Shown here one piece after another: positions 13,273-64,000 of a stretch of 64,000 bases of DNA. Below the pieces are notes generated by a model. It was not told the DNA's origin. It ran no database searches and worked only from the letters and a program-made list of their open reading frames with translations. The stretch spans positions 3,098 to 67,097 of the forward strand of contig JACRNH010000026.1 in the NCBI GenBank assembly GCA_016219325.1. The letters are read 5' to 3'. Source of the DNA: Candidatus Collierbacteria bacterium. GTDB taxonomy: Bacteria > Patescibacteriota > Microgenomatia > UBA1400 > JACPES01. A program made the translations under genes and the position numbers. Numbering within the stretch: position 1 is the first letter of the stretch; each line of letters starts with the position of its first letter.

Positions 13273-13320
13273 TACTCTTTACTCATTACTATTTACTCAT
13301 TATTTTCTACTCATTATCTT
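13273..13320. repeat. IG-A partial copy (TACTCATT heptamer-like repeats ...TACTCATTATTTTCTACTCATTATC)
   Basis: Read directly. Confidence 0.55.
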
Positions 13321-41984: not shown

Positions 41985-42032
41985 AGAGAGGGCCAAAATT
42001 AAGGACGCGGTAAATTTACTAAAAATCCCGAT

Positions 42033-42613: not shown

Positions 42614-42672
42614 TAATCAGGATTATCCTTTCGCATATGATTCTACAATAAATGTAATGTTACAATGTTTCA

Positions 42673-43455: not shown

Positions 43456-43703
43456 CTCAAAAACGCCGAATTCTATTTCTGGTAATCTTAATTATTATCG
43501 CCGCCGCCATTAACGCGATCAAAACTCAAAACAGAGTATCTCAAAAAGAATTTACGACCCAAGTTCTCGACCAATACATTAAATATTACTGCCCCAACGC
43601 CGGAACTTGCTCCCGGGAAAAAGCTCTGTCAAGTCTCCGCAGTGACTGGCCGCAACTGTACTCACGGGGCTTCTCTATTCTTGAAAACAATGAAACGCAA
43701 TAA
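43453..43703 (+). CDS. Small hypothetical membrane-anchored protein (about 83 aa)
   Basis: ATG at ~43453 (MTQKRRILFLVILIIIAAAINAIK...), in-frame continuation of an upstream spurious ORF. Confidence 0.3.
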
Positions 43704-47441: not shown

Positions 47442-50306
47442 CTAATGTTTTCTCGCCACCGTTAATAAAATCGGCGAGGCTTTCAACCAGTATAAAACAA
47501 TTGAAAGAGGGAAAGTGAAAATTAAAAGAGAGAGTAAAACAGCCGAAACCAAAATCGCCGAAACCGGCCCATTATTGGTTAAAGCCACAAAATTAAGCCG
47601 CGGCGAAATTAGGTACATAATACTTTGAGCCAGTCCGACCGGAATATATTCCGGCGCGTACAATTGCCGCTGTTCAATCACCTCAAAACCGACCTCTCCC
47701 AACAGATGCGCCAATCCTTTAGGGGTAAAATGAGTCAAGTGCCGGGGAGTATCCAGATGAAACCATTTTGACCCGAATATTAGTCTTTCGGAATTTGCGT
47801 AATTCGGACACTCAATAATTAATATTCCTTTTTTCTTCAACGACTTAAAAATCTTTGCCAAAGCCAGAGCTGGATTAGAAACGTGTTCCAGGCTCTCCCA
47901 AAATGTCGCTATGTCAAAAGTTGCCGAACTTATTTTTACTTTCTCTATTCCTCCGATCAATATATTATTATTCTTAGCGCCGGAAAACGAAGTTTCAATC
48001 CCGGTATAGTTGAATTCCGGCAAAAAGGATCCGGTTGAACCGTCCCCACAGCCAATATCCAATAATTTCCCGGATTTTTTATACTGGCGAATGATGTTAA
48101 GCCGCCTAAACTGAAGTAAATTATAAATAAGTGATTTTACCGGAAAATAATAAGTCTTTGGATAGTATTTAGATAAATCTTTAGGCGCGGGAACTGTAAA
48201 TCCATTTTGGCAAATGGTACAAAAAAACACGGAAAATTGTTCCCCGCTGACGCCATCTTTTACTACGTTTTCAAATCTGGTTAATTTTTGACCGCATTTC
48301 GGACAAGGCGCCGGCTGAATCAACAAGAAAGGCCCCCGCTGGAATCTAAAGAACTTCGCCGCCAAATACTGCCACAATGTCTTAAATGTTCCCAGAGCGT
48401 AAATCGTACTCCGGAACAAGTTAGCCGTATGCATCGCCGGATGGTATCGGCAGGAAATCGGGACTTCGGCGACTTTGAAATCCCAATAAACCGCTTGGGT
48501 GATAATGTCAAAACTAAATAAATAATCGTCGGAATTTTGCCGCCAAGGAACGCTCTCCAATAATTTTCTGGTGTACATCCTGAAACCCGAATGAAATTCC
48601 GACAGCTCCAACCCCAAAACTAACTCGTCAATAAACGACATCGCCCGATTGGCGATAAACTTTACCAACGGCATTTTATTTTTCAACGCTGTTTTTGGAA
48701 AAATAAATCTGGAACCCAGCGCGAAATCATATCCTTCGTTTACCTTTTCCACGAATTTCGGCAGAGCCGACGGATCGTATTGGTCATCCGGATGATATTC
48801 AATAATTACGTCCGCTCCGGCTTCCAAAGCTTTAGTCAAACATACTTTAAGATTTCCCCCGTACCCCAAATTCAATTCGTTTCTAAAAACTGTAATCGGC
48901 AGTTTTTTGGCGACCTGGTAAGTATCGTCCCGGCTGCTGTCATCTACCAAAATCACTTCGTCAACATATTTTTTAGGAATCTTCCGGTATGAATCGACTA
49001 AAGTTTTAGTAGCATTGTAAGCCGGCATTACCAATATTACTTTTTCCGTTTTCCTGCGTGGCACCAGTCTGGAAACCACTTTGACATCCGGCACCGGAAT
49101 AATAAACTTTCCTCCGTTTTCCAGATATTTGAATTGCTTTTCCATTATTTCCTCGGCAAAATTCCATGCCAAAATCACTGCAAAATCCGGTTGAACGTTA
49201 TTTATTGCTTCTTCCGGGGCTATCGGAATGTGGCTTCCCGGCGCCAACAGTCCCTGTTTATACGGAGTGGAATCAACGATAAAGTCCATCACCTCACCGT
49301 CAATTCCGCAATAATTCAATAAAATATTTCCCCTGGCCGACGCTCCGTATCCCACCACCGATTTTCTTTTTGACTTTATCTCCAGTATTTTTTTTCTCAA
49401 CCTTTCCCCCAACCGCGCCACCTCTTCCCCAAATTTCAGGTACGTTTCCGGCCGATTTATCCCGAAACTCTCTTCTAACTTTAATAAATCGCCAATAGCC
49501 GCCGTTCTTATATAATCGGCCCTATCTTTAGCGATAGTAATTCTCAATGCCCCGCCGTCAATCGCCGTCCGCCGGATATCAACTATAAATAATCCCTTTT
49601 TATCCAACAGGTATTTGATGGCCGCCGCCGAAAAATATGACAAGTGCTCATGATAAATTGTGTCAAAATATTTCTTCTCCACTAAATCCAAAAGATAGGG
49701 AAATTCACACACGAATAGGCCGTTTTTGGACAACAGCGTTTTTACTCCGGAAAATAACCCGTGCAAATCCTCAATGTGGGCGACTACGTTGGTGGCGGTA
49801 ATATAATCGGCATTTCCGTATTTTTTAACAATTTTGGCTGCGGTAGCAGGCGAAAAATACGCTGCCAAAGTTTCAACCCCTTTCAGCTCGGCCACTTTTG
49901 CCAAATTTTCCGCCGGATCAACCCCCAAAGTTCTGACTCCTAATTTCTTAAATTCAACCAGCAAACTCCCATCGTTGCTGCCGATATCCACCGCTAATTT
50001 GTTCTTTTTCACCGGCAGTTTCCGGATCATTTCCTGCGCTATCTGGAAAAAATTATCCAATCTGGTTTTTGACGCCGACGGGATATAAACATAATTCCTA
50101 AACATCAGCTCCGGATCAACGATATCCAGCAGTTGAACCAAAGTGCATCTGGGGCAAAATCCGACTCTAAGCGGAAATTTTTTTTCGGTTTTTTTCTCTT
50201 GTTTGGACTTCAAAAACGCGTTTGGCAGAGGCATTTCACCCAAATCAAGAAATTCCACCAGCTCCTTTGAGCCGCAAATCCGGCACCGCTCCACCATCTT
50301 CGTCAT
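47442..50306 (-). CDS. Three-domain fusion: NDP-hexose C-methyltransferase (TylCIII-like, Zn-ribbon + Methyltransf_13/14) - GT2 glycosyltransferase - class I SAM methyltransferase with Zn ribbon and C-terminal TM
   Basis: N-term CRICGSK...CPRC then MTase; middle VILVMPAYNATKTL...ILVDDSSRDDT...GSRF (DPM1-like GT2); C-term CPKCGQ...CTICQ then LLDIGCGDGS motif I; 954 aa. Confidence 0.6.
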   Translation of the reverse strand: MTKMVERCRICGSKELVEFLDLGEMPLPNAFLKSKQEKKTEKKFPLRVGFCPRCTLVQLLDIVDPELMFRNYVYIPSASKTRLDNFFQIAQEMIRKLPVKKNKLAVDIGSNDGSLLVEFKKLGVRTLGVDPAENLAKVAELKGVETLAAYFSPATAAKIVKKYGNADYITATNVVAHIEDLHGLFSGVKTLLSKNGLFVCEFPYLLDLVEKKYFDTIYHEHLSYFSAAAIKYLLDKKGLFIVDIRRTAIDGGALRITIAKDRADYIRTAAIGDLLKLEESFGINRPETYLKFGEEVARLGERLRKKILEIKSKRKSVVGYGASARGNILLNYCGIDGEVMDFIVDSTPYKQGLLAPGSHIPIAPEEAINNVQPDFAVILAWNFAEEIMEKQFKYLENGGKFIIPVPDVKVVSRLVPRRKTEKVILVMPAYNATKTLVDSYRKIPKKYVDEVILVDDSSRDDTYQVAKKLPITVFRNELNLGYGGNLKVCLTKALEAGADVIIEYHPDDQYDPSALPKFVEKVNEGYDFALGSRFIFPKTALKNKMPLVKFIANRAMSFIDELVLGLELSEFHSGFRMYTRKLLESVPWRQNSDDYLFSFDIITQAVYWDFKVAEVPISCRYHPAMHTANLFRSTIYALGTFKTLWQYLAAKFFRFQRGPFLLIQPAPCPKCGQKLTRFENVVKDGVSGEQFSVFFCTICQNGFTVPAPKDLSKYYPKTYYFPVKSLIYNLLQFRRLNIIRQYKKSGKLLDIGCGDGSTGSFLPEFNYTGIETSFSGAKNNNILIGGIEKVKISSATFDIATFWESLEHVSNPALALAKIFKSLKKKGILIIECPNYANSERLIFGSKWFHLDTPRHLTHFTPKGLAHLLGEVGFEVIEQRQLYAPEYIPVGLAQSIMYLISPRLNFVALTNNGPVSAILVSAVLLSLLIFTFPLSIVLYWLKASPILLTVARKH

Positions 50307-50396: not shown

Positions 50397-51269
50397 TCAG
50401 GGTATCATTTTCAGACCATTGATGATAATCTCAACAAAATGTTCGCCAAAAGTTTTTATGGTATTTTCCGATTCGATGAACGGAACCAAATCCCGTTGAA
50501 CATCTCGCGGGTTAATTTTTTTTACCTTTTCCGCCACCCGGTCGATTACATCTTTTTTCTCACTGATTTTCAGCGCCGCTAATATTCTTTCCCACCGGGG
50601 AACCAGTTGTCCCTGTCTTTTTTGCGCCAGTTCAATCAGCCAAACTAAATCAAACAAGTCACGCCCCTTAAATGATATTTCTTGGTCCCGGCCGCGGAAG
50701 AAATCCCGTCCCAAAAAAGCAATAATTTTATTGGCAAACATTGTCGGCAAATCGTAAGCATTGACAAAAAATGTAAACTCCCGCGTAAAAATAGGGTGAA
50801 CCTCCGTTTGATAAAAACCGATATCTTCCTTGGCAAAATCGCACCGCACAAATAGTTGTTGCCGGTCGGCGGCGCTTTTAACCATTCCGACTTCGTTTAG
50901 GATTCGTGGAAATTTTATAAAAACAGTTCGGCTGTTATTTGCTAATTTTGTTTCCACGCTTTTATACTGCAAGTTTCCGGCGAAATAATTTTTAATTTTG
51001 GCGGAAAATTTTTCGATTTGGAATTTTCCCACGAAATCAAAATCTATGTCCTCTGATAACCGCGGCAAACCATATACTTTTCGCAGGCAAGTCCCGCCGG
51101 TGAAAATCAGCCGTTTAAAGTCGGAATCGCTATAAACAAAATGCAGCAGGTAATCCTGAATCGCCTCTTTCACCCGGCTAAAAATAAAAGGTTTATTCCG
51201 GCCGCGCTCCGCTTCGATCGTGTTTTTAATCACATCGACAATCATAGCTTCCTTTCTTTTTTTAACCAA
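50397..51269 (-). CDS. abiEii: AbiEii/AbiGii-family nucleotidyltransferase toxin (type IV TA/abortive infection)
   Basis: RLIFTGGTCLRKVYGLPRLSEDIDFDF (GGTxL...R.SxDIDF) hallmark. Confidence 0.65.
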   Translation of the reverse strand: MVKKRKEAMIVDVIKNTIEAERGRNKPFIFSRVKEAIQDYLLHFVYSDSDFKRLIFTGGTCLRKVYGLPRLSEDIDFDFVGKFQIEKFSAKIKNYFAGNLQYKSVETKLANNSRTVFIKFPRILNEVGMVKSAADRQQLFVRCDFAKEDIGFYQTEVHPIFTREFTFFVNAYDLPTMFANKIIAFLGRDFFRGRDQEISFKGRDLFDLVWLIELAQKRQGQLVPRWERILAALKISEKKDVIDRVAEKVKKINPRDVQRDLVPFIESENTIKTFGEHFVEIIINGLKMIP

Positions 51270-51916
51270 GCCGCTATTTTTTCCATCTTCGGCGAACCGG
51301 ACTTGGCCGCCAACTTGGAAAAATCGGCCTTTGCCTGTTTGCCCAAAGCGCCCCAGTTAATCCTGCCTTCTTTTAACACATATTTCCGCGTGCCTTCGTC
51401 GGAGACAAACTTTTTCAGGTATAGGAAATCAAACAAGGCCTTGTACGGATAAGCCATCTTTATTATCAAACCGGTATCTCCAAAAACCAATAGCTGATAT
51501 CCGCCGTAAAGTTCTCTCTTTATGTTCCGGTAAATAAATGTTGCTTTTGGGGAAGTATAGACGCGGGGAGACTTCAGCGTTACCGACGTCAAGCTAAAAA
51601 CAGACTCGGGAATAATATTGTATTTAGACAAAACATACTCCAAGGATACGTAAGAAGGCAAACGCAACACGTTGGCAAGATACATCCAGTATAATTCCGA
51701 TTGCTCCGGGTTGCCGGTCATCGTGTCTTGGTAGTGCGAAGACACATAAAATCCTTTCTTCAAAGGGGTTATCAGTTTCTCTTTCGTCAACTTTTTAATC
51801 CAATAATTCAAATCTTCGCCCTCTTTCCCCAAAGCCAAACCCAGGTTCTGCTTGGTAAAATATGGCAGTTGTTTAACCGTGGTAATTAAACGGATAAGTT
51901 GCATGTCATTCCACAA
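51242..51916 (-). CDS. abiEi: AbiEi-family antitoxin/transcriptional regulator
   Basis: About 220 aa, immediately upstream and overlapping AbiEii by 28 nt, N-terminal wHTH-like segment. Confidence 0.5.
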   Translation of the reverse strand: MWNDMQLIRLITTVKQLPYFTKQNLGLALGKEGEDLNYWIKKLTKEKLITPLKKGFYVSSHYQDTMTGNPEQSELYWMYLANVLRLPSYVSLEYVLSKYNIIPESVFSLTSVTLKSPRVYTSPKATFIYRNIKRELYGGYQLLVFGDTGLIIKMAYPYKALFDFLYLKKFVSDEGTRKYVLKEGRINWGALGKQAKADFSKLAAKSGSPKMEKIAAWLKKERKL

Positions 51917-52007: not shown

Positions 52008-52994
52008 GTGAATAACCTTAATCGTTGCACTATTCTTCTCACCGGCGGAACCGGCTCATTCGGCAAAGCGTTTATTTCATTCTTGTTGTCTCAAGAAAAA
52101 TTTAGCGGCACAATCAGGGTTTTCTCCCGAGGGGAATACGAACAATATAAATTACAACAGCAGTATCTTAGTGATCCCAGGATTCGTTTCTTAATCGGAG
52201 ATGTCCGGGATAAAAATCGTCTCTATCGGGCAACGCAAGGAACCGATGTTATCATTCACGCCGCCGCTCTCAAGCACGTTACCATTGCTGAATATAACCC
52301 ATTCGAAGTGGTAAAAACCAATATTATCGGCTCTCAAAATATAGTTGAAGTGGCTATTGATACCAAAGTTAAAAAAGTAATCCTAATTAGTTCCGATAAA
52401 GCAGTTTATCCCATCAGCCTTTATGGAGCTACTAAATTAGCTGCAGAAAGAATATTTATTCAAGGAAATGTATACGCCGGCACCCAAAAAACCATTTTCG
52501 CGGTGGCCCGGTTTGGAAATTTCATGGGCAGCCGGGGAAGCGTTCTTCCATTATTCTCAAAACAAAGTCATTCGGGAATTTTATCGCTTACCCATCCCGA
52601 TATGACTCGTTTTTGGATAACACCTTCTCAAGCAGCCGCCTTCGTTTTATTGTCATTATCAAAAATGAAGGGCGGAGAAATATTTATTCCAAAATCTCCA
52701 ACTATCAAAATTATAGATCTCGCCAAAGCCATCGCTCCTAAAGCAAAGCATAAATTCACCGGAATTCGCCAAGGTGAAAAACTACATGAGGAGCTTATGA
52801 CAGAACAAGAGCTGGAGTCAAGCGAAACGTTTAACAATTACTATGTTATTCATCCAACAACTGAAGGAAAACTTACCCAACCAACAGAAAAAAAAAGAGA
52901 GAAACGGTTGCTATATCGCAGTGACAGTAATCAATGGCAACTTGATCTGAAAGGAATCAAGAACCTTCTAAAGCTTTCCATATCTCCCGGCTAA
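52008..52994 (+). CDS. UDP-N-acetylglucosamine 4,6-dehydratase (PseB/LegB/CapD short form)
   Basis: ILLTGGTGSFGKAFI, DVRD, VIIHAAALKHV, TNIIG. Confidence 0.7.
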   Translation: MNNLNRCTILLTGGTGSFGKAFISFLLSQEKFSGTIRVFSRGEYEQYKLQQQYLSDPRIRFLIGDVRDKNRLYRATQGTDVIIHAAALKHVTIAEYNPFEVVKTNIIGSQNIVEVAIDTKVKKVILISSDKAVYPISLYGATKLAAERIFIQGNVYAGTQKTIFAVARFGNFMGSRGSVLPLFSKQSHSGILSLTHPDMTRFWITPSQAAAFVLLSLSKMKGGEIFIPKSPTIKIIDLAKAIAPKAKHKFTGIRQGEKLHEELMTEQELESSETFNNYYVIHPTTEGKLTQPTEKKREKRLLYRSDSNQWQLDLKGIKNLLKLSISPG

Positions 52995-54066
52995 TATAGG
53001 TAACATCCTGCTTATTCAAACCAATATAAAACGGCAACGCCAGAGTTTGAGATGCCATCAGTTCGGCAACGGGAAAATCTCCCTTTTTATAGCCGAACAT
53101 TTTTCTCATAAAAGGCTGAAGGTGGATCACCGGAAGATACGGCTTCGTTTGTATTCCCTTTTTTGCCAATTTATTCATCACCCGATCTCTAACTCCGTTG
53201 GTAATCCGGATAACATAGACAAATAACGACAATGATCCCTGGGAATTAGTGCTTGGCATGACAATAGTCTTATTGCCATGCAAATTTTCGTTGTACCAAT
53301 TAGCAATCTTTCTCTTTTCTGCGATCATCCAATCAATTTTTTTTAGTTGGGTCATCCCCAAAGATGCGCTCATTTCATCCATCCGATAGTTGTATCCCAA
53401 TCTTTCGTGAATTAGCCAATCTCCATTAACATTTCTCCCCTGATTTCGCATACTCTTGCATAGATTATAAATTTTTTCCGAATCGGTCACTATCATTCCC
53501 CCTTCGCCTGTTGTCATTTGCTTATTTGGATAAAATGCATAAACTCCTACGTCTCCTATCGTCCCCGAATACTTTTCGTTATATTTCGAACCAAAACTTT
53601 CAGCGGCATCTTCAATAATCAATAGTTTATGTTTATTTGCAATTTTTAAAATTTCTCCCATATTTACCGGCTGACCAAAGACATGAACTGCCACTATTGC
53701 CTTAGTCTTTTTTGTAATTTTAGCCTCGATCAGTTTAGGATTGATATTAAAAGTCAAACTTTCAATATCCGCAAAAACCGGTTTCACTTTCTCATACAAT
53801 AAACAATTTGATGATGCTACAAACGAAAAAGGCGTAGTAATAACTTCATCACCCTCCCCCAGGCTTAACGCCCGCACAGCCAGATGAAGTCCGCAGGTTC
53901 CATTCGAAACCGCACAGGCGTACTTTGCTCCGGTATAAACAGAAATATCTTTTTCAAACTGCAAATATTTCGGCCCCAACGAAAGCTGACCGGAATTTAA
54001 CACCGCTAAAACTCCTTTTTTATCTTCGGCATCAATAAATGGTTTAGCCAGCGGATAAGTTTTCAT
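52957..54066 (-). CDS. DegT-family aminotransferase (PseC/LegC-like)
   Basis: CAVSNGTCGLHLAVRAL, EVITTPFSFVASSN, FAFYPNKQMTTGEGG. Confidence 0.7.
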   Translation of the reverse strand: MKTYPLAKPFIDAEDKKGVLAVLNSGQLSLGPKYLQFEKDISVYTGAKYACAVSNGTCGLHLAVRALSLGEGDEVITTPFSFVASSNCLLYEKVKPVFADIESLTFNINPKLIEAKITKKTKAIVAVHVFGQPVNMGEILKIANKHKLLIIEDAAESFGSKYNEKYSGTIGDVGVYAFYPNKQMTTGEGGMIVTDSEKIYNLCKSMRNQGRNVNGDWLIHERLGYNYRMDEMSASLGMTQLKKIDWMIAEKRKIANWYNENLHGNKTIVMPSTNSQGSLSLFVYVIRITNGVRDRVMNKLAKKGIQTKPYLPVIHLQPFMRKMFGYKKGDFPVAELMASQTLALPFYIGLNKQDVTYISREIWKALEGS

Positions 54067-54850
54067 TTTTTACCCTCCTCATCAGAAATTCCGCAAACTC
54101 AAAATCCAGATTAGTATCAATATCAACTGAACGTTCTTCCGGCATAACGTAAACCCTTGTTTTTCGCTCAAACAAATCTTTCTCCCCAAAAATCTCTCGT
54201 TTCCACATTGCGTAAATACTTCCATTCTGTAAATAAACTTTAGGCGCATCCTGTCTCCTCGTCACCAATTTCGTCGTCCTTTTAGACAAAGTGGCATAAC
54301 CCCTACTATCCACCTCATACATATTGAAGTATGGATTATTGTTGGATTCAGAAACCGAAAAGACGGATTCTGTGTTAGGAATATTCACTAACGTTTTCAC
54401 CGCTGCTTCGATATCTTTCACTATCCTTAACGGACCCGTGGGACTTAAATTAACCACAATATCGTACTGTTCTTTCCAATAATTTTCCGCTTTCCGCACC
54501 GCGTGAATAACGGCCGGAATTACTGAAATTTCATCCGTCGCTAGCTCTTTAGGACGCAAAAAGGGGGGGTTAACTCCGCATTTTTCCGCGACTGATTTTA
54601 TTTCTCCATCGTCTGTCGACACCACAATTCTATCCGCCCAGTCAAACTTTTTCGCTTGCTCAATAGTATAAGTTATTAATGGTTTACCATTTAATAAGCG
54701 AATATTTTTCCCGGGAACGCCTTTTGAGCCACCCCGAGCGCAAATTACCACAATAATAGAATAGCTTTTATACATTTGGTCTTTACTACGGTAGTATTTT
54801 ACCAGTATAATCGAAAATATGAAGGGATTAAAACAAACTTTTGAAATCAC
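54044..54850 (-). CDS. CMP-nonulosonic acid synthetase (acylneuraminate cytidylyltransferase NeuA/PseF/LegF family); contains G7/C7 homopolymer
   Basis: IIVVICARGGSKGVPGKN hallmark; true start likely MYKSYSIIVV. Confidence 0.7.
   Translation of the reverse strand: MISKVCFNPFIFSIILVKYYRSKDQMYKSYSIIVVICARGGSKGVPGKNIRLLNGKPLITYTIEQAKKFDWADRIVVSTDDGEIKSVAEKCGVNPPFLRPKELATDEISVIPAVIHAVRKAENYWKEQYDIVVNLSPTGPLRIVKDIEAAVKTLVNIPNTESVFSVSESNNNPYFNMYEVDSRGYATLSKRTTKLVTRRQDAPKVYLQNGSIYAMWKREIFGEKDLFERKTRVYVMPEERSVDIDTNLDFEFAEFLMRRVKNENLSAG
54563..54569. repeat. G7 (C7 on gene sense strand) homopolymer inside CMP-NulO synthetase gene
   Basis: Read directly; longest G/C homopolymer noticed in this AT-rich window. 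Confidence 0.8.
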
Positions 54851-55967
54851 ACCGGGAAGAAAAGTGGGGAAAAATCATCCGGTCTACTTAGTCGCCGAAG
54901 TCGGAGTTAATCATAACTGGCAGATTAAACCAAACCTGAAATTAGCCAAGGAATTAATTATGCTGGCTAAAAATACCGGTTTCGACGCAGTTAAATTCCA
55001 AACTTGGGTCACCGGCTTAATTTGCCGCCCGGAAGCCAAAAAGGCCGAATACCAAAAAACTAACACTGCTGGAGGTGTCAAACAGACCCAATACCAAATG
55101 ATTGCTAAATTGGAACTGCCGTTTTGGACATTTTTGGAATTAAAAACCTATGCCGATTCGCTGGGAATTACTTTTGTTTCTACTGCCGATGAACCGTTTA
55201 GTTTAGAATTTCTGGATAAATATATAGGCGTACCATTTTTTAAAATTGGTTCCGGGGAACTGGATAATCCACAAATGCATTGCGAAGTGGGTAAAAGAAA
55301 AAAACCGGTAATGTGGTCCACCGGCATGGGGACAATGGCTGAAGTAATGGCGACAAGGAACAACTTACTCAAAGCCGGTTGCGATCGGCAAATCATTTAC
55401 CAGTGCACTTCCAACTATCCGGCGGACAACAAAAACGCAAACCTTAACGCTATGCTGTCAATTCGTAAAAAAACCGGCGGATTAGTTGGACTATCCGACC
55501 ACACCACAGATAATCTAGTCTCCGAAACAGCCGCGGCCTTAGGAGCCGTGGCTATCGAACGGCATATCACCATTGACAAAAACTTACCAGGTCCGGATCA
55601 TCGAGCGTCTTTGGATCCCAAAGAGTGTCAAGATTTTGTTCGTCGAGCCAGACATCCCCGATCTGTAACCGAATTAAAAAAAGAATATGGAGAAAAAACT
55701 ATTAAAAGTATTTTGGGATCAGCCGAAAAAAAACCGGTTCCGGAAGAATCGGAAGTAATGGCCGTCGTCAGAAAATCCGCCACGAGCGGAGCCAAAGGAA
55801 TTCCGGCCGGAACAAAATTAACCGAAAAATCTCTGCCAGAATGGGTATATTTAATGCGGCCGCAAAACGGAGAAATTAAAGCCGACCAGTACTTTGAACT
55901 CTTAAGCAAAACGATAAACGCCGATATCCCCCCTTTCACTCCCCTAAAGCAAACTATGTTACGGTAA
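54819..55967 (+). CDS. Nonulosonic acid synthase (NeuB/PseI/LegI) with C-terminal SAF domain
   Basis: VAEVGVNHNWQ (AExGxNHNG motif), about 380 aa. Confidence 0.75.
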   Translation: MKGLKQTFEITPGRKVGKNHPVYLVAEVGVNHNWQIKPNLKLAKELIMLAKNTGFDAVKFQTWVTGLICRPEAKKAEYQKTNTAGGVKQTQYQMIAKLELPFWTFLELKTYADSLGITFVSTADEPFSLEFLDKYIGVPFFKIGSGELDNPQMHCEVGKRKKPVMWSTGMGTMAEVMATRNNLLKAGCDRQIIYQCTSNYPADNKNANLNAMLSIRKKTGGLVGLSDHTTDNLVSETAAALGAVAIERHITIDKNLPGPDHRASLDPKECQDFVRRARHPRSVTELKKEYGEKTIKSILGSAEKKPVPEESEVMAVVRKSATSGAKGIPAGTKLTEKSLPEWVYLMRPQNGEIKADQYFELLSKTINADIPPFTPLKQTMLR

Positions 55968-55996
55968 TTTTACAACCGGCATGCTAGAATAAAGCC

Positions 55997-57127
55997 ATGC
56001 TACAATCCAAAATAAAGGTTATTTATTTCACAGGTTCTTGGTCCGATTACGCTTTAATGGTACCAATTTTAGAAACGCTAAAACTGGAAAAAATGGTAGA
56101 ACTAGGCTTAGTTGTTACCCATATGCATCTGGACGAACGCTTTGGTCTAACCGTCAAACAAATCTTTGAAAAAGGATTTAAAATCATTGGAAAAATCAAA
56201 ACCGAAATCGTTGAATCCCAAATCGGAATGCTATCAGAGTATCAAGTCATAATTAAAGAACTCCCTCCAATCCTTCTAAGATATCGGCCCAACTACGTGT
56301 TAATCCAAGGCGACCGAATCGAAAGCGCCGCGGCCGCCATGACAGCTTACTTGTTAAGAATTCCAATCATCCATATCGGCGGCGGCTGTATTACCGGTTC
56401 TTTAGACAACGATTTCAGAAACATTATCACCGACCTCGCCGACTGGCACTTTCCACCTACTAAAACTGACGCCAAACGAATTGTCAGTAATGGAAAACCT
56501 AAAAACAGTGTCTTTGCGATTGGAGAACCGGGAATCGACTCGGCTGTAAAAACCAAACTTTTACCTAAAAAAAACTTATGGAAAAAATTCAACCTGGACT
56601 CGAATCAAAAACTACTTTTAGTCATTTTTCATCCCGACACAGGTGAAAAAAGAATTGGTCCCGCAGAACAAATTCAACCCCTATTAACCGTCTTAAGCGG
56701 CATTCGCCACCAAATTTTCCAGATTAATCCTAACGCTGATACCGGAGGTATTGTAATGCGTCGGCTGATCGTTAAATCATCTGGGGAAAAAAGTAATTGG
56801 CAAGTAATAAACAACCTGCCTCATCAACAATTATTGACTTTCTTTAAATACGCGGATGCAATTATTGGCAATTCCAGCGCCGCAATTGTTGAAGCTCCCA
56901 GTTTTAAACTTCCGGTAATAAACATCGGACGGCGCCAAAAGGGTAGACAGATGGCTAAGAATATTTTATCGGTCACTTACGACTCTAAACAAATCTCCCG
57001 CGCTCTGAAAACCGCCCTAAGTCAAGATTTTAAACAAATCCTTCACAACTGCAAAAATCTTTATGGAGACGGTAACGCGGCTGATAGATTTATCAAAATT
57101 TTCAAAAACAAAATTTTAAAGATATGA
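55997..57127 (+). CDS. UDP-GlcNAc 2-epimerase (hydrolysing), NeuC/LegG-like
   Basis: IPIIHIGGGCITGSLDNDFRNIITDLADWHF matches NeuC HIEGGE...D...RH region. Confidence 0.6.
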   Translation: MLQSKIKVIYFTGSWSDYALMVPILETLKLEKMVELGLVVTHMHLDERFGLTVKQIFEKGFKIIGKIKTEIVESQIGMLSEYQVIIKELPPILLRYRPNYVLIQGDRIESAAAAMTAYLLRIPIIHIGGGCITGSLDNDFRNIITDLADWHFPPTKTDAKRIVSNGKPKNSVFAIGEPGIDSAVKTKLLPKKNLWKKFNLDSNQKLLLVIFHPDTGEKRIGPAEQIQPLLTVLSGIRHQIFQINPNADTGGIVMRRLIVKSSGEKSNWQVINNLPHQQLLTFFKYADAIIGNSSAAIVEAPSFKLPVINIGRRQKGRQMAKNILSVTYDSKQISRALKTALSQDFKQILHNCKNLYGDGNAADRFIKIFKNKILKI

Positions 57128-58194
57128 TTGGCGGCAACCTATCGTTAGAACCTATCTCTCTAAAAAAGGTAAATCAAAATCTGTTTCCTGAAAATAAAAC
57201 TTTTTGGCTGCAATGCGGACGCGGCGGATTGACTTTAATTATTAAATTACTAGGCTTAAATCCAAAAGATGAAGTTTTGCTGCCTAGTTACCACTGTCAA
57301 GAAATCGTTAAACCTTTTTTACATAATGGAATTAAATGTATTTACTATCCTGTAGGCAAAAATTTACAAATTCGGCTCGCCGATATTGCGCTTAAAGTCA
57401 ATCCCCAAACCAAGCTTATTGTCATCATCCCTTATGCTGGTTGGCTCCAAAAAGAAACACGTCTTATCGAATCCTGGTGTCAACAAAAGAAAATTCCCTT
57501 GTTGAAAGATAACGTGCCGTTGGTACCGGAAATCGTCAAATCTCAACCAAATACGTTTCAGCTTTACAGTTTCCGAAAATATGCCGGGGTCCCTAGCGGT
57601 GCGGCGATGGTGCTGCCAAGAGAGTTCAACAAAGAAAATTATTTAGACATACATTTTTCACATCCAAAACTATTTCCCGAGTTGCTTCAAACGCTCGCGC
57701 TTCTCCTGAGAAGTTTTAGTCATCTTTTTCATTCAGATTTCGCTTGGGCAATTTCCTACAAACTATATCACTTAGGTGAAACTCTCTTCGACGACAAAGT
57801 CAGACACATCTCAATCTTATCTTATCATTGGGTGAAACGGATTAAATGGGATACAATCATTCGGAAACGAAGAGAAAATGCCAACTTTATGCAACAAAAA
57901 CTCATCCATCTAAAAAAAATTACCTTGTTGAATTTACCTTCTCCCAAACGAGCGACTCCCCTATTGTTTCCGATTGTCTCGTCTAAAGCCGCGCGCGTAA
58001 AAGATCTTATTAGAAGTGAAGGAATTTTTGCCACTCAATTGTGGCCTTTTCCCGAAAATCTTAGCCCCTCAAAAAATCCTGATTCCTACTGGCTCACCAA
58101 CAATCTTTTGTATCTGAATATAGATCAGCGTTATGGTAAAAAGGAAATGGACTATCAGATAAAAACATTAGCAAGGGGCGTCCGCCATGATTGA
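57124..58194 (+). CDS. Divergent DegT-fold (PLP aminotransferase-like) protein
   Basis: CGRGGLTLIIKLLGLNPKDEVLLPSYHCQE and YSFRKYAGVPSGAAMV resemble DegT small-domain and Lys regions but diverge. Confidence 0.35.
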   Translation: MIGGNLSLEPISLKKVNQNLFPENKTFWLQCGRGGLTLIIKLLGLNPKDEVLLPSYHCQEIVKPFLHNGIKCIYYPVGKNLQIRLADIALKVNPQTKLIVIIPYAGWLQKETRLIESWCQQKKIPLLKDNVPLVPEIVKSQPNTFQLYSFRKYAGVPSGAAMVLPREFNKENYLDIHFSHPKLFPELLQTLALLLRSFSHLFHSDFAWAISYKLYHLGETLFDDKVRHISILSYHWVKRIKWDTIIRKRRENANFMQQKLIHLKKITLLNLPSPKRATPLLFPIVSSKAARVKDLIRSEGIFATQLWPFPENLSPSKNPDSYWLTNNLLYLNIDQRYGKKEMDYQIKTLARGVRHD

Positions 58195-59131
58195 TATTTA
58201 TTATCTTAAAGAATACGGAAAAATTTTGGCTGAATATGAAAAAGCCGATTTCGAACTTTTCAAATATCAAAAGGGTCCGCATTCAGTCGTCTACCCTATC
58301 CTAAAAAGGAAAATTGATAGTAAATGGTGCGATATAACCTCACCTTACGGCTACTCCGGTCCCTTCGCCAACTTCCAAGATAAAAAGTTTTATCTGGAAT
58401 TTCGCCAAGCTTTTAATCTCTATTGCCAAAAAAATAATATCATCAGCGAATTTATTCGTTTTCATCCGCTGCTTAAAAATCACTTAACTGCCAAAGGTGT
58501 AATCCCACTAATAAAAAGAGGCGAAACAATCTGGATTGACTTATCAAAGTCTGAAAAGCAACTTTTTGGCGACTTCAGAAAAGGACATCGTAATATTATT
58601 CGAAAATCTCAAAATAATAATGTCTTAGTGAAACTGGAATCACCGCAGAAAATCAATCAATTCTATCGTTTATACATTGACACTATGAAAAGAAAAAAAT
58701 CTAAAGACTATTATTTATTCTCCGAAAAGTTCTTTAAAGATCACTTTAATAGATTAAACAATAATATCTTTTGGCTGGGAGCCCATTATCAAGATAAACT
58801 TATTGCCGGAGCCATATTTTTAAAATCGGATGATTTTCTCCATTACCATTTCGCCGGAAGTGACAGTCAATATTTAAGTTTAAGTCCGGGAACCTTGATA
58901 CTTTGGGAAGCAATTAAAATCGGCAAAGAACTTGGTCTTCGCAAATTTCATCTAGGTGGTGGAATTGATGATAAATTATTTTTTTACAAATCGGGATTTT
59001 CGGACAACCGTGCTGATTTTTATACCGGAGAAGTAATCCACAACCAAAAAACATATAACTATTTACTATCCCAAAAAAGCGACATAACTAATGAACATTA
59101 CTTCCCCTTATACAGACAACCAAAATTATGA
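58187..59131 (+). CDS. FemAB/BioF2-like GNAT-fold acyl/aminoacyl-transferase
   Basis: About 314 aa, HYHFAGSDSQYLSLSPGTLILWEAIK typical of Acetyltransf_6/FemAB family. Confidence 0.45.
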   Translation: MIDIYYLKEYGKILAEYEKADFELFKYQKGPHSVVYPILKRKIDSKWCDITSPYGYSGPFANFQDKKFYLEFRQAFNLYCQKNNIISEFIRFHPLLKNHLTAKGVIPLIKRGETIWIDLSKSEKQLFGDFRKGHRNIIRKSQNNNVLVKLESPQKINQFYRLYIDTMKRKKSKDYYLFSEKFFKDHFNRLNNNIFWLGAHYQDKLIAGAIFLKSDDFLHYHFAGSDSQYLSLSPGTLILWEAIKIGKELGLRKFHLGGGIDDKLFFYKSGFSDNRADFYTGEVIHNQKTYNYLLSQKSDITNEHYFPLYRQPKL

Positions 59132-61020
59132 AATTAAAACATCTTTTTTTCGTGACTTCAATGAATGAGTCCAAACAAAGTTTGTTACAGATTGACAAAC
59201 TGGATAAGCAAAATGTCAAAATAGAAATTATTTCTTCTGATCCGACTACAAATATCTTCTCGAAGAAACTAAATATTAAATTCTCGGACATCGGAAACTA
59301 TTATCCTGCTTCCCGGCGCGTCAAAACAGCCAAAAATCACTTAAATATGTTGATGGAAAAATGGAATTCTGACCCCCGGTTACATAAAAATCTTCTATAC
59401 AAAAGTCAATTCCGGCTCAACCGCCTGATTGGATATTCTTTAGACCTGTTTCTGGCCGAAATCCTACATAGCCTAATGACCGCTGAAGAAATAATTAAGA
59501 AAACAAAACCAGATGTAATTCATATTTCTCCGCGATGGCTGGAGTCTCCATTTAGACGCTATCAATCGGAGAAACTAAACCTAGAGAACATTGCCCTTTA
59601 TCAATTGGCCAAGAAGCGCCGCTTGCGAGTCATGAACTTCAGAATTCCGCTTTCACAAACAATGTTCGCTTATACAATAAACTTTTTGGTCGCATTAACT
59701 TGGCAATTACTTCGCGCCTCATATCATCAATTATTTCACCCGGCATCGCCTATTAAATCCAATAAATTAATCATCATGGCTAATTACTACCAATTGGAAA
59801 ACTTTATCCCGGCAATAAAGAAATTAAAAAAACAGAACCGCAGCCTCGCTGTTATCGGGAAGATCTCTCCCGAGCAAACAAAAAAATTAGCAAATCTCAT
59901 TCCAACATTTATATCTTTGGAAACACTGGAAAAACAAAAAAAAACCTTATGGCAAACACGGCTTATTAACACAGTCGCATTTAACCTTAAATTAATAATT
60001 TCATATTCTCATTTGAAACATTTCTTTGATCTGGAGAATCAAAAATATTGGCAATTTTTGTTCCCCAAATTTCTTTATTACTTTATGGCTGAATTCCCCC
60101 TTCTTACGGATTATCTCGACGGCGCCAACCATCTCTTCAAACAGGGAAAATTATTGGTAACTCCGGCTACGGCCGACAATGTTAGCCAAACCATTGCCAT
60201 GGCGGCTAAATCCACGGAAACAACTGTGCTGGAATTTCAGCATGGAATCATCTTGAATGAAGATGACGACCACTCTTTTAGAAATAACGATTATTTCGCG
60301 GTTTGGGGAGAAAAAACGCGTTCAATTATCGCCAAAAGTCAAAACCCGGAAAAAATTCCGATTACCGGATATCCGCTTTTTGACCGCTACCGATATCCAC
60401 ATTCGTCAATTATTTCCAAATCATCTCTAAGACAAAAATTACATATATCTCATCATAAAACAAAAGTTCTTTTAATCCTTTCCGTATTTCCCTCCGGCGC
60501 CACCAGATTATATCCAAACAAATCCCCATATCAATTTATGACGATGATATTCAATACCCTGCTGGCATCGGGCGAAGACTGGAAAGTGATATTCCGCCCT
60601 CATCCTTCGGTTGACGCATCATGGATTATCTCCTTAGCTAAGGATATGAAAATTGATCTTTTCTACGATCATCGGGAGCTTAAACTTGAAGAGGCGATTG
60701 CCGCCAGTGATGTTATTATTTCTAATCCTTCTACAACCACGATAGAAAGCATGTTCCAGCAAAAGCCAATTCTTTTATATGACTTTCCGGGCATGAATGG
60801 CGCCTATAATTATTCCAATTGGTTTATTATTTCTTCCGGCGCCACAGCGATGTTCAAATCTCAAACGGAATTAAAAAAATTGATAGAAAAGTCTCTTTAT
60901 GATAAACTATTTAGGAATACGATGTTTGCCCGGCAAAAAATCTTTCTAAAAGAATACTGTTCTGCGTTCTCTAAGCCGGCCACCGACAAAGCGCGATCAC
61001 TGATTGCTAAACTTAGTTAA
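59128..61020 (+). CDS. Putative GT-B nonulosonic-acid (sialyl-like) transferase, 630 aa
   Basis: C-terminal half has FRPHPS (HP motif) and SNPSTTTIES region reminiscent of bacterial GT-B sialyltransferase/capsule glycerophosphotransferase folds; location next to NulO cassette. Confidence 0.3.
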   Translation: MKLKHLFFVTSMNESKQSLLQIDKLDKQNVKIEIISSDPTTNIFSKKLNIKFSDIGNYYPASRRVKTAKNHLNMLMEKWNSDPRLHKNLLYKSQFRLNRLIGYSLDLFLAEILHSLMTAEEIIKKTKPDVIHISPRWLESPFRRYQSEKLNLENIALYQLAKKRRLRVMNFRIPLSQTMFAYTINFLVALTWQLLRASYHQLFHPASPIKSNKLIIMANYYQLENFIPAIKKLKKQNRSLAVIGKISPEQTKKLANLIPTFISLETLEKQKKTLWQTRLINTVAFNLKLIISYSHLKHFFDLENQKYWQFLFPKFLYYFMAEFPLLTDYLDGANHLFKQGKLLVTPATADNVSQTIAMAAKSTETTVLEFQHGIILNEDDDHSFRNNDYFAVWGEKTRSIIAKSQNPEKIPITGYPLFDRYRYPHSSIISKSSLRQKLHISHHKTKVLLILSVFPSGATRLYPNKSPYQFMTMIFNTLLASGEDWKVIFRPHPSVDASWIISLAKDMKIDLFYDHRELKLEEAIAASDVIISNPSTTTIESMFQQKPILLYDFPGMNGAYNYSNWFIISSGATAMFKSQTELKKLIEKSLYDKLFRNTMFARQKIFLKEYCSAFSKPATDKARSLIAKLS

Positions 61021-62568
61021 TCAAATACAGGGTAATAGTTCAAAAATATAACCCCTCTCGTCTGTCCATAACAAGCAATAACTATTCAAAACGTGCCTTT
61101 TAAGCTCTTTCTCGTTCTTAAATGTTTCTAGATCGGTTACTACCAGATATCTATAGTTTTTGGCCATTAATTCCGTCAGTTGAACTTCGGGCGATTTATT
61201 AATCCAATTGTCACCACTGGATAAATATTTATACTCTGCCAGATCTCTTTTTGTCATTTGCGCCGGTAAAAAATTGATCGGTATAGTCCAACGATCCAAA
61301 TAAAAACCGTGTAGAGGTGGGCTTACATTGCTTATCAACACCAATGAATCATCTTTGGGGACGAGTCCTTTTACTTCATTTATAAGTAGTGACTGTTTAT
61401 CCAATTCCAACGCTAGCTTTGGTTGAACAAATAGATAACTACGCCAACTGATCAAAATCAATAGAAAAAATACTGTTGGATAACGCCACCAACGATTGTT
61501 TAAATTAAGAGTAATCTTATATATAGAGTAAGAAATTCCTAAAGTTACCGGCGGCAATAAACTAGTGAAGTAATATTCTTGTAAACTATTGCCGGACATT
61601 ATTACCAACATTAGTCCAACAGACAAACCCCAGCTTAATATTAAACTACTGTAAATTTTGGCTTTTGTGCTTTTTTTTCTAAAATCAATAATCAAATAAA
61701 AAAGAGATAAAAGAAACAACAAAACTCCTATATTTGTCGCAGTAGCTACAACTAAATTGTCCAATAATCCCTTCCAAAATAAATAATCCCTAGAATAAAT
61801 TAAAAATATTGATAATAAATAATCTTTCCTCCATACTGCGTCAAAACTGCTTGGAGTCGTCGCTCTAACCGGAGAAATAACCATGAACCACCAAATATAC
61901 AAACTAAAAATTGTGATCATAGCCAATGTTAGAAAAGTCACCCAAATATACTTACTTTGGTTTTTTCGATTTATTAAAACCGCCACCGCCATCGGCGCCA
62001 ACAAATAAACATTGGTTAATTTCATCAGCACGCTTCCTACTGATAAAATTGACGATAAAACAACGTTCCTCGCCTTACTATTCTTTAAATATCTAACCCA
62101 GAGCACAAAAGCCCACACCATCATTGTGATCATCGGATATTCCGGCTGGATCGACCTCGACTGAATAATCGACAGCGGTAACACCGCCAAGAGCGCCACC
62201 GGTAGTAAACGGGATAACTTATCGCTAAAAAACAACGATTGAAATTTATAAATGGCAATTGATAACAACGGATAAAAAGCGATGATCCCCAACCTGGCCA
62301 AACTAGTGGAAAATTCCCCGGCCAATTTCATCAGTTGGGCGATACCCCACCACAACAGCGGAAACTCCTGAAGCAAATACCCAGGGCGAGCGAAATTGTG
62401 AACCACTGGCCGAAGAAATGTTGTTTCGTTTAGATAAAAACTTCTGATTATATCTAAATCCATTACCTGCCTAGTGGGAAACCATTCCACCGGAGGTTGA
62501 TGTAAATTGACTAGACGAATTGCAACCCCAAAAATAATTATTAGTAAAAGAAATAATTTTTCTCTCAT
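61021..62568 (-). CDS. Polytopic membrane protein, probable GT-C family glycosyltransferase
   Basis: 515 aa, about 12 TM, no soluble domain. Confidence 0.35.
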   Translation of the reverse strand: MREKLFLLLIIIFGVAIRLVNLHQPPVEWFPTRQVMDLDIIRSFYLNETTFLRPVVHNFARPGYLLQEFPLLWWGIAQLMKLAGEFSTSLARLGIIAFYPLLSIAIYKFQSLFFSDKLSRLLPVALLAVLPLSIIQSRSIQPEYPMITMMVWAFVLWVRYLKNSKARNVVLSSILSVGSVLMKLTNVYLLAPMAVAVLINRKNQSKYIWVTFLTLAMITIFSLYIWWFMVISPVRATTPSSFDAVWRKDYLLSIFLIYSRDYLFWKGLLDNLVVATATNIGVLLFLLSLFYLIIDFRKKSTKAKIYSSLILSWGLSVGLMLVIMSGNSLQEYYFTSLLPPVTLGISYSIYKITLNLNNRWWRYPTVFFLLILISWRSYLFVQPKLALELDKQSLLINEVKGLVPKDDSLVLISNVSPPLHGFYLDRWTIPINFLPAQMTKRDLAEYKYLSSGDNWINKSPEVQLTELMAKNYRYLVVTDLETFKNEKELKRHVLNSYCLLWTDERGYIFELLPCI

Positions 62569-62569
62569 A

Positions 62570-63469
62570 TTAGATCTTACGAGTTGCTACAACTATTTCA
62601 TCCTGAAAATCAGTCACACTGGCAATTCTGGTTAATTGGGCTACAACAGTGGCTAGTGCTTGCTGTTTTATCTCATCGCCATGATTAGTGGTAACTTTTA
62701 ATCGTTGTCTGACATTTGATACATCCACAATATCTACCCCTTCACACCACAAAACCTTAAAATCGTTTTTTCCAAGCAGTTTAGAAAGAGATTGTCTGTC
62801 GTAATGAAAAAGATGGCCGAAAGCATTATCAGTCTGAAACAATTCTTCCAATGGCATTGATAAAATTCCTCCCGAAATTCTTGCCAGAAAATATGCAATC
62901 CTGGAGATCAATCCCTTTTGATTTGGAACCGACAGCACTAAATATCCATTTCGCTTAATTTTTGTTGTTACTAGACGGATAATTTTGTGTGGATCGGAAA
63001 AATGCTCAAATACATTCCACAAAGTTACCATGTCAAATTTTCCTTTAACTTTGCCCAACTGCTCGGCTCCAAACCAGTAGATCAGATACGATTTGTTAAT
63101 CTTGTCTTTCATGAAAGGAGATGGCTCCATTCCCACTGTTATCGCGGTACTGAATTTTCTCTTTACTTCATCCAGAAACCAGCCGGCAGCGCAGCCAATA
63201 TCCAACACAGATATTCCATTTTTAAACAGTTCTTTATGCTTTTCAACAAATTGTTTGTGAGATTTCTTACGAAACATCCGGTAATATTTAAGCCATTGAT
63301 CAACCTGATAGGAATCAAAAAAATCCTTGTTAGGATTATGAAAATTAGGTTTAGCAAAAACTACGCCACAATGACTGCAATTGTATAAATTTGTCACCGA
63401 TAGTTTAATCGGTTGATCATCAATAAAATTACATTTACAAATTGGACAAAAGTTTTTATCTTTTTCCAT
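62570..63469 (-). CDS. Class I SAM-dependent methyltransferase with N-terminal Zn-ribbon
   Basis: CPICKC...CSHCG; VLDIGCAAGWF motif I. Confidence 0.55.
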   Translation of the reverse strand: MEKDKNFCPICKCNFIDDQPIKLSVTNLYNCSHCGVVFAKPNFHNPNKDFFDSYQVDQWLKYYRMFRKKSHKQFVEKHKELFKNGISVLDIGCAAGWFLDEVKRKFSTAITVGMEPSPFMKDKINKSYLIYWFGAEQLGKVKGKFDMVTLWNVFEHFSDPHKIIRLVTTKIKRNGYLVLSVPNQKGLISRIAYFLARISGGILSMPLEELFQTDNAFGHLFHYDRQSLSKLLGKNDFKVLWCEGVDIVDVSNVRQRLKVTTNHGDEIKQQALATVVAQLTRIASVTDFQDEIVVATRKI

Positions 63470-63998: not shown

Positions 63999-64000
63999 TT

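Follow-up and report, generated by a model that had tools for sequence, protein, structure and literature searches.

A predicted legionaminic-acid-type cassette with a FemX-type transferase in a Collierbacteria glycan locus, and its counterpart in Escherichia coli O161

Aminoacylated amino sugars and nonulosonic acids (NulOs) are common serotype determinants, among them Leg5Ac7-D-Ala and Leg5Ac7AcAla (Leg, legionaminic acid) and Qui4N carrying Gly, Ala, Asp or Ser. Among described systems, the closest to the one reported here is that of Escherichia coli O161, whose O-antigen contains Leg5Ac7(D-alanyl) and whose Lea3 is named an alanyltransferase in accounts that summarize the work of Li et al. 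(2010) (PMC7685785, PMC10609480). In the searchable literature we found no enzymatic test of Lea3 or of the other O161 enzymes, no biochemical account of enzymes that attach amino acids to such sugars, and no publication that connects Fem-type enzymes with the NulO or bacillosamine pathways. Here we describe a cassette of eight genes at positions 52008-61020 of a 64-kb stretch of Candidatus Collierbacteria DNA (contig JACRNH010000026.1; the whole stretch is called the window below). We consider it probable that this cassette makes, CMP-activates and transfers a 5,7-diamino-3,5,7,9-tetradeoxy-nonulosonic acid by the logic of legionaminic acid synthesis, with the usual N-acetylation replaced.

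Cassette layout and the E. coli O161 counterpart

All eight open reading frames (ORFs) listed for this region in an initial annotation, made from the sequence alone, were found at the same coordinates when the window was checked, and the families named there were borne out by hidden Markov model (HMM) matches far beyond chance. Six of the genes are on the plus strand, whereas the aminotransferase and CMP-transferase genes are on the minus strand. The genes for the NeuB-like synthase, the NeuC-like epimerase, a second and divergent DegT-like protein (DegT2), the Fem-like protein and a 630-amino-acid (aa) protein (GT630) form a single plus-strand run, in which a gap of 29 bp separates NeuB from NeuC and the start and stop codons of the last four genes overlap by 4-8 bp.

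The O161 cluster came to light when E. coli genomes were searched at the DNA level, for distant similarity, with the NeuB and NeuC genes of Fusobacterium. Its order is galF, 4,6-dehydratase, LegC-family aminotransferase, FemA/FemB family protein, neuB, neuC, an ORF, nucleotidyltransferase, cytidylyltransferase and wzx, with no acetyltransferase among its genes. Lea3, the FemA/FemB family protein, is a full-length member of the Fem-like family of the window (hhalign 100%, 5e-48; 30% identity), and the ORF after neuC matches the DegT2-like family (97.4% probability; motifs SGR, VPDFIC, SLRK and DSRY). PGAP gives this ORF as a 263-aa hypothetical protein (locus L092, 11144-12127, from NZ_CP195454.1), but its full reading frame is 327 aa long and overlaps the last part of neuC; only the 327-aa form includes the SGR and VPDFIC motifs, and the PGAP start is probably mis-annotated.

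The E. coli O108 cluster, from a producer of 8eLeg5Ac7Ac, has the same core genes with an ordinary acetyltransferase, and has no Fem gene and no DegT2. In this comparison of two serogroups only, the presence of the Fem-like gene tracks the presence of an amino acid at N7, a contrast which supports the earlier idea that the sugar of the window bears an aminoacyl decoration. Since O161 already has this arrangement, it is not new in kind: judged by gene content, the cassette is a member of the lea-type pathway known from O161 in a bacterium of the candidate phyla radiation (CPR). What appears to be peculiar to the window, by the same comparison of genes, is a first enzyme of the PseB type and a TagB-like transferase.

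The Fem-like transferase and DegT2

The Fem-like protein matched Acetyltransf_6 (8e-16) and FemAB (6e-10) in HMM scans, and its AlphaFold2 (AF2) model (pLDDT 94.8) has a double-GNAT fold of the FemX type. Foldseek placed the structures of Sbb17 and Sba18 at the top, followed by FemX, FemA and MprF (TM-score 0.56-0.73 on the query); E-values for FemX, FemA and Sbb17 ranged from 6e-15 to 5e-13, at TM 0.68-0.73. The Sbb17 and Sba18 structures are of aminoacyl-tRNA-dependent peptide synthases with the amino sugar streptothrisamine, and both enzymes move glycine from Gly-tRNA onto the amine of an amino sugar (PMC12945691). When a family profile was built from 30 members and compared with the PDB, it matched Fem-type chains only (FemX_Wv, 3e-17), and the family-invariant K268, which lies inside an F/Y-K-x-x-F motif, aligned with FemX Lys305, the catalytic residue of that enzyme (PMC12945691). 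Isoelectric points were 8.9-9.8 for every cassette protein and are hence uninformative as a sign of tRNA binding.

No close relative was found in the species-representative genomes of GTDB that were scanned (best match 39% identical). Relatives 58-62% identical occur inside the same cassette in two metagenomic contigs (L001 and L003), in the order NeuB, NeuC, DegT2 where present, Fem, aminotransferase, dehydratase and CMP-transferase; a Methanoregula metagenome-assembled genome has the same cassette order, and in a Fusobacterium genome the Fem gene adjoins NeuB and NeuC. Of 84 loci of the wider family, 56 have a DegT aminotransferase, and 40 a Polysacc_synt_2 dehydratase, no more than 10 kb from the Fem-like gene; of the 82 loci that are non-redundant, 46 have the aminotransferase at 3 kb or less and 13 at 500 bp or less. 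Annotated loci of Proteiniborus, Bacillus, Cetobacterium and Priestia plasmids show the Fem-like gene in a PglF/PglE/PglC-type operon, at the place usually taken by the PglD acetyltransferase. A role in peptidoglycan synthesis was rejected: the FemX equivalog NF047883 scored 21.6 bits (cut-off 500), and the genes around it encode sugar dehydratases, aminotransferases and NulO enzymes. The protein thus does not cluster with the peptidoglycan Fem enzymes; had it done so, this would have told against an aminoacyl decoration.

One of these relatives differs in its flanking genes. In L003 (13078-15288) Gfo/Idh/MocA and SDR genes flank the CMP-transferase gene and DegT2 is missing, the same as in the O108 (8-epi-Leg) cluster (L093, 10828-13259); by this analogy, related CPR cassettes may make different epimers.

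An acetyltransferase corresponding to PseH, LegH or PglD was sought in a scan covering essentially all ORFs of at least 120 aa. None of the GNAT or left-handed beta-helix (LbH) type was found in the cassette, and the roughly 10 kb around the Fem-like gene contained no N-acetyltransferase in any of the L001, L003 and Cetobacterium loci. Three LbH proteins were considered and rejected as the canonical enzyme. Two are of the WcaF type and sit among other glycan genes of the window, and the third, about 5.6 kb downstream of the cassette and just past the end of the window, is inside a complete WbpB/E/D/I-like operon. The LbH proteins in and beside the window thus belong to other pathways, and a canonical PseH or LegH elsewhere, which would have argued for ordinary acetylation, did not appear. 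Beyond position 64000 (L085, 11437-16980) an MptA_B-type GT-C gene is followed by this operon, which encodes a UDP-GlcNAc 3-dehydrogenase, a DegT aminotransferase, the LbH acetyltransferase, a WecB 2-epimerase and a GT2 and is, as predicted from its genes, a separate second diacetamido-sugar pathway.

DegT2 had been called degenerate in the initial annotation, and this does not hold. The hhalign comparison with canonical aminotransferases covers its full length (99.4% probability, 303 columns), with K152 and D129 at the positions of K182, the Schiff-base lysine, and D153, the aspartate that binds pyridoxal phosphate (PLP), in the canonical aminotransferase of the window; it is moreover a recurrent, conserved neighbour of the Fem-like gene. 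The motifs SGR, LPxYxC, [EK]D, S[LFI]RK and DQRY are retained across phyla. In 15 of 80 genome loci, spread over several phyla, the Fem-like gene has a DegT2-like gene (20-24% identical) as its immediate neighbour, and the two stand side by side also in locus L088 and in a Priestia plasmid; the family as a whole comprises 936 clusters at E<=1e-30. Four members are fused to Bac_transf, a PglC-like phosphoglycosyl transferase (L051 8346-9986, L055 8274-9992, L058 3332-5005 and P0266), one to a NeuC/WecB-type epimerase (P0171) and one to a GT4 glycosyltransferase (P0254). Because of these fusions, DegT2 would be expected to work on nucleotide sugars. A DegT2-like ORF also occurs in an O-antigen-type cluster after cpxA in Proteus mirabilis H63 (L091, 5731-10573; NZ_OL790811.1, a chromosome filed as a plasmid). 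The order there is DegT aminotransferase, GT2, WbqC-like (PF08889), DegT2-like (323 aa, unannotated) and SDR, and the DegT2-like protein pairs with the WbqC-like and not with a Fem-like one. A possible further case is the second aminotransferase of the A. wodanis Leg cluster, which is said to resemble that of V. vulnificus CMCP6.

The FemX-type fold, the retained catalytic lysine, the sugar-gene context and the O161/O108 contrast agree with the earlier proposal that the Fem-like enzyme replaces PseH/LegH and adds an aminoacyl rather than an acetyl group; it probably uses an aminoacyl-tRNA donor, in place of PseH, LegH or PglD. It might instead be a non-orthologous, acyl-CoA-dependent N-acyltransferase by which the C4 amine is acetylated (or receives another CoA-borne acyl group), yielding an ordinary di-N-acyl NulO. 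Pfam does class the protein as Acetyltransf_6 (GNAT), NCBI names its relatives GNAT family N-acetyltransferase, and other tandem GNATs (VipF, clavulanic acid Orf) use acetyl-CoA; we found no assayed member of this subfamily. These tandem GNATs, however, come lower in the fold list, at TM of about 0.4, whereas the first 13 structural matches are all aminoacyl-tRNA-dependent enzymes; the profile search and the invariant Lys305 equivalent point the same way, and no Q/RxxGxG/A CoA-pyrophosphate motif is visible in a by-eye reading of the family alignment. Moreover, the alanine of O161 is at the very position this enzyme should acylate, and the acetyl group of O108 is provided by a normal acetyltransferase. 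We therefore regard an acyl-CoA donor as improbable. Less credible still, and in our judgement very unlikely, is that the Fem-like protein and DegT2 act outside the NulO pathway, on peptidoglycan precursors or some other glycan, while an LbH enzyme encoded elsewhere acetylates the C4 amine. CPR bacteria make peptidoglycan, the 64-kb locus mixes several glycan pathways, and the downstream LbH protein has NeuD/PglB/VioB similarity (94 bits). Yet the DegT2, Fem-like and GT630 genes follow NeuC with overlapping starts and stops, the arrangement of NeuC, Fem, aminotransferase and dehydratase recurs in CPR, Methanoregula, Fusobacterium and O161, the FemX equivalog score is far below its cut-off, and the LbH gene is embedded in an operon complete with its own UDP-GlcNAc 3-dehydrogenase, DegT and WecB genes.

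That DegT2 is a catalytically dead scaffold binding sugar nucleotides, or a second true sugar aminotransferase, instead of an enzyme tailoring the aminoacyl group seems to us doubtful, though this is the strongest of the competing explanations. The Pfam DegT model reaches only residues 34-129 (37.2 bits), the GEGG loop is changed to PSGA and the phosphate-binding SGT to SGR, the fusions to PglC-like, NeuC-like and GT4 domains would fit the binding or channelling of nucleotide sugars, and in Proteus the partner is of another family. Against this, the equivalents of the PLP lysine and aspartate and the five motifs are strictly kept at 20-24% identity, which argues for catalysis; a pseudoenzyme was rejected as the leading reading on account of the conserved catalytic residues and cross-phylum motifs. 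The cassette and most loci already contain a canonical aminotransferase, and one transamination is enough for the NulO backbone. Our best guess, by analogy with O161, is that DegT2 epimerizes the attached aminoacyl group from L to D, because tRNA carries L-alanine and the O161 sugar contains D-alanine.

Sugar backbone and glycosyltransferase

The dehydratase matched PF02719 (Polysacc_synt_2; 3e-91) and scored 399.9 bits with the PseB model TIGR03589 (cut-off 407.75). It has the active-site signature SDK...YGATK, among PDB sequences it matches H. pylori PseB/FlaA1 best (2gn4, 293 bits, as against 135 bits for PglF), and it is only 42% identical to its counterparts in L001 and L003. The aminotransferase (PF01041, DegT, 1e-115) has the canonical FYPNK lysine and EDAAES aspartate, and its PseC (298.9 bits) and LegC (276.4 bits) scores are both under cut-off (423.5 for PseC). 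For the CMP-transferase, PF02348 (CTP_transf_3) gave 6e-24 and the PseF model TIGR03584 152.6 bits (cut-off 205.7); the public gene call starts at 54775 and is 243 aa long. The synthase (PF03102, 2e-66) scored higher with TIGR03569 (NeuB/NnaB, 287.6 bits) than with PseI (172.1 bits), both under cut-off (340 for PseI); its PDB matches were SpsE (118 bits), NeuB (114) and PseI (96), and it is 69-74% identical to the L001 and L003 proteins. The epimerase exceeded the cut-off of its model (TIGR03568, NeuC_NnaA, 338.5 bits against 235.9), and its PDB matches were the epimerase domain of GNE and the hydrolysing GDP/UDP-diNAcBac 2-epimerase 5xvs (LegG-type, 4.5e-45), both at about 1e-45.

Because a dehydratase and an aminotransferase are combined with NeuC-type and NeuB-type enzymes, the logic is that of legionaminic acid starting from a UDP-sugar. 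The dehydratase and C4 aminotransferase of such a pathway are present, as is the hydrolysing 2-epimerase (NeuC/LegG), while the LegH/PglD-type N-acetyltransferase is missing from the cassette and the Fem-like gene occupies its role. A full pseudaminic acid pathway was rejected, as the PseC, PseI and PseF models scored under cut-off, HMM scans found neither PseG nor PseH, and a NeuC-type epimerase is present instead. B. subtilis SpsM shows that a PseB/CapE-like dehydratase is able to feed the Leg route (PMC7439481). By our own stereochemical reasoning, a truly inverting PseB combined with a 2-epimerizing hydrolase would lead to 8-epi-Leg or an Aci-type sugar and not to Leg; from sequence, the product could be Leg, 8-epi-Leg, an Aci-type sugar or another.

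The proposed pathway would begin with the dehydratase (52008..52994), after which the minus-strand DegT aminotransferase would produce the UDP-4-amino sugar (UDP-4-amino-4,6-dideoxy-HexNAc). The FemX-type enzyme would then transfer an amino acid from aminoacyl-tRNA, which by O161 analogy may be alanine, to the C4 amine, from which N7 of the finished sugar derives, and DegT2 would tailor the attached aminoacyl group, for example by L-to-D epimerization. Removal of UDP with 2-epimerization by the NeuC-like enzyme, condensation of the hexose with phosphoenolpyruvate by the NeuB-like enzyme and formation of the CMP-sugar by the cytidylyltransferase would follow, and a GT-B of the TagB/BFO_1060-like kind would add the sugar to a surface glycan.

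That last enzyme would be GT630. Its C-terminal half matched PF04464 (Glyphos_transf, 33.4 bits, 3e-8; cut-off 22.1), and NF046086 (BFO_1060) and TIGR04396 gave 59.3 and 54.2 bits respectively (cut-offs 200 and 125). All 16 homologues compared keep the FRPHPS motif (residues 489-494), and E369-x-Q371-H372-G373 and R490-P491-H492-P493 are likewise invariant; we could assign no D/E-D/E-G motif with confidence, and no hydrophobic segment suggests a transmembrane helix. As comparison with PDB sequences gave only chance matches to antibodies, the fold was taken from the AF2 model (pLDDT 88.8) and Foldseek: it is GT-B, nearest to WecB-type epimerases, TagF, TarL and other GT-Bs. None of the top 50 structural matches is a GT38, GT52 or GT80 sialyltransferase, nor did any sialyltransferase model of Pfam or NCBIfam match, and membership of those families was rejected. 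Of the sialyltransferase-like GT-B proposed in the initial annotation, the GT-B fold and the HP motif therefore stand and the sialyltransferase kinship falls, the apparent relatives being TagB/TagF and BFO_1060 instead. The L001 and L003 clusters encode proteins of similar length (622-634 aa) that give the same Pfam and NCBIfam matches, likewise weak, although tblastn did not detect them as GT630 homologues. The Pse/Leg transferases of Tannerella forsythia (BFO_1060 family), which have a TagB-like domain and an HP motif, have been proven by knock-out and complementation (PMC5420450). Given the invariant QHG and RPHP residues, the TagB-like matches and the conserved synteny, GT630 is a reasonable candidate for a CMP-NulO transferase of the TagB type.

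Several observations weigh against the pathway as drawn. The near-orthology of the first enzyme to PseB is a misfit with plain Leg stereochemistry, and the dehydratase, aminotransferase and CMP-transferase are 41-51% identical to those of the syntenic relatives, as against 58-74% for NeuB, NeuC and Fem; because of this lower identity the block of three genes may have been exchanged, possibly swapped in from elsewhere. The tandem-GNAT fold is by itself compatible with an acyl-CoA donor, the downstream LbH N-acetyltransferase could in principle moonlight, and at only 30% identity to Lea3 the Fem-like protein could use a different amino acid. GT630 scores well under the BFO_1060 and TIGR04396 cut-offs. 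DegT2 is absent from L003 and from most Fem-like loci and hence not obligatory; going by this distribution, it is an optional tailoring step.

Surroundings of the cassette and comparison with known systems

The whole window is a glycan locus of mixed pathways, with GT-C/PMT_2, GT2 and GT4 glycosyltransferases, a Wzm/Wzt exporter, methyltransferases and a carbamoyltransferase (Table 1); tRNA and Rfam scans of it found no feature. Membrane glycosyltransferases of the GT-C/PMT_2/DUF2142 kind are unusually dense, with at least six in 64 kb. Directly upstream of the cassette lies an AbiEii-type nucleotidyltransferase toxin (PF08843, 1e-24), in a minus-strand pair of ORFs (50397-51269 and 51242-51916) whose other member, upstream of the toxin gene and overlapping it, may be the AbiEi antitoxin. 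Before it, a 954-aa fusion (47442-50306, minus strand) joins a sugar C-methyltransferase (Methyltransf_13/14), a GT2 and a second S-adenosylmethionine-dependent methyltransferase. Five large ORFs of 408-928 aa (17119-19905 on the minus strand; 21876-23792, 23785-25275, 43642-44868 and 44874-46490 on the plus strand) had no library match, in Pfam for two of them and in NCBIfam for all five. The GC content is 0.33-0.38 over 58187-63469 (0.334 in the Fem-like gene) and about 0.40-0.43 in the rest of the window; together with the uneven similarity to syntenic relatives, this low GC suggests modular exchange within the cassette.

Table 1. Predicted functions and positions of the cassette genes and of other glycan genes in the window.
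Predicted feature	Position	Strand	Basis or setting
UDP-GlcNAc 4,6-dehydratase, short PseB/CapE/FnlA type	52008-52994	+	PF02719
PLP-dependent C4 aminotransferase, PseC/LegC-like	52957-54066	-	PF01041
CMP-NulO synthetase, acylneuraminate cytidylyltransferase family	54044-54850 (likely start 54775)	-	PF02348
NeuB-family NulO synthase, probably Neu/Leg rather than Pse type	54819-55967	+	PF03102
Hydrolysing UDP-sugar 2-epimerase, NeuC/LegG type	55997-57127	+	TIGR03568
DegT2, divergent fold-type-I DegT-like PLP-type protein	57124-58194	+	Partial Pfam DegT, hhalign
FemX-type double-GNAT transferase	58187-59131	+	Acetyltransf_6/FemAB, AF2, Foldseek
GT630, 630-aa soluble GT-B, TagB/TagF-like	59128-61020	+	PF04464, AF2, Foldseek
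WcaF-type hexapeptide (LbH) O-acetyltransferase	9575-10174		Among other glycan genes
WcaF-type hexapeptide (LbH) O-acetyltransferase	30301-30840		Among other glycan genes
GT-C/PMT_2/DUF2142 genes	5662-7137, 13307-14734, 28296-29768, 30907-32508, 39986-41218, 61021-62568		
Wzm/Wzt ABC exporter	41202-43455		
Wzy_C protein	7103-8713		

If the cassette functions as proposed, Collierbacteria may display sialic-acid-like sugars on their surface. The result of wider reach, as far as gene content can tell, is that the Fem-like and DegT2 genes form a conserved module which can be linked to a solved glycan. The pair spans Bacillota, Fusobacteriota, Pseudomonadota, CPR bacteria and methanogens, so that an uncultured CPR bacterium and a methanogen share it with many other phyla. 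We tentatively suggest that it is a widespread two-enzyme module bringing aminoacyl-tRNA into nucleotide-sugar metabolism, in which the C4 amine of UDP-4-amino-4,6-dideoxy-HexNAc receives an aminoacyl group through the Fem-type enzyme and the PLP-type partner then epimerizes the added group from L to D or otherwise tailors it. Should this be true, the module would account for the long-known N-alanyl and N-glycyl decorations of bacillosamine-type sugars and of legionaminic acids, the D-alanyl groups found in E. coli O161 and Vibrio vulnificus among them, would show clearly that nucleotide-sugar biosynthesis can draw on aminoacyl-tRNA, and would provide a predictive genome marker for aminoacylated surface sugars. 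The chemically solved glycan of O161 can now be connected with a FemX-type gene and with a PLP-type partner that had gone unremarked; this connection opens the question of how aminoacylated amino sugars arise to direct test, with O161 as a tractable system.

Parts of the proposed pathway have precedents in other systems. GT630 resembles Tanf_01245 and TFUB4_00887 of Tannerella (BFO_1060) and TagB/TagF in its GT-B fold, TagB-like domain, HP motif and position beside CMP-NulO genes, but has 630 aa where the Tannerella transferases have about 445, with a large helical N-terminal half that matched nothing. The fusion in Neisseria PglB/PglB2 of a PglC-like domain to a domain N-acylating the C4 amine is a precedent for the DegT2-like/Bac_transf fusions. 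DhpH of the dehydrophos pathway, which has a PLP domain, is likewise a precedent for a PLP enzyme paired with a Fem-type transferase, as proposed for DegT2 and the Fem-like protein; in DhpH, however, the PLP domain makes the acceptor, which in the window the canonical aminotransferase already does. DhpH-C is a FemX-like domain (PMC12945691). With FemX of Weissella viridescens and the FemABX group the Fem-like protein shares the double-GNAT fold and the Lys305 equivalent, and the amino-sugar aminoacylation by Orf11, Sba18 and Sbb17 in streptothricin-type pathways is the same chemistry as that proposed here. It differs from the FemX/Sbb17 group in its low structure-based identity (13-16%), in its context of nucleotide-sugar and NulO genes rather than peptidoglycan or antibiotic genes, and in its proposed acceptor.

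At the level of whole pathways, the B. subtilis SpsM/C/D/G/E/F system (PMC7439481) and the E. coli O108 elg system agree with the window cassette in dehydratase, aminotransferase, N-acylation, NeuB-type synthase and CMP-transferase. O108 also shares the NeuC-type 2-epimerase/hydrolase, and SpsE is the best PDB match of the window synthase. Both pathways, however, use an acetyltransferase (SpsD and Elg5) at the step where the window has the Fem-like enzyme and DegT2, and the window dehydratase is far closer to true PseB. The O161 lea cluster (CMP-Leg5Ac7Ala) has the same enzyme set, including the overlapping DegT2-like ORF right after NeuC, and like the window cassette it lacks an acetyltransferase. 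Identities between the two are 30% for Fem, 42% for NeuB (Lea4), 29% for NeuC and 37% for the CMP-transferase. The O161 dehydratase is of a different type (29% identity over 150 aa), the gene order differs, and a PtmE-like nucleotidyltransferase is found in O161 and not in the window, while the TagB-like 630-aa transferase and the CPR host set the window cassette apart from O161.

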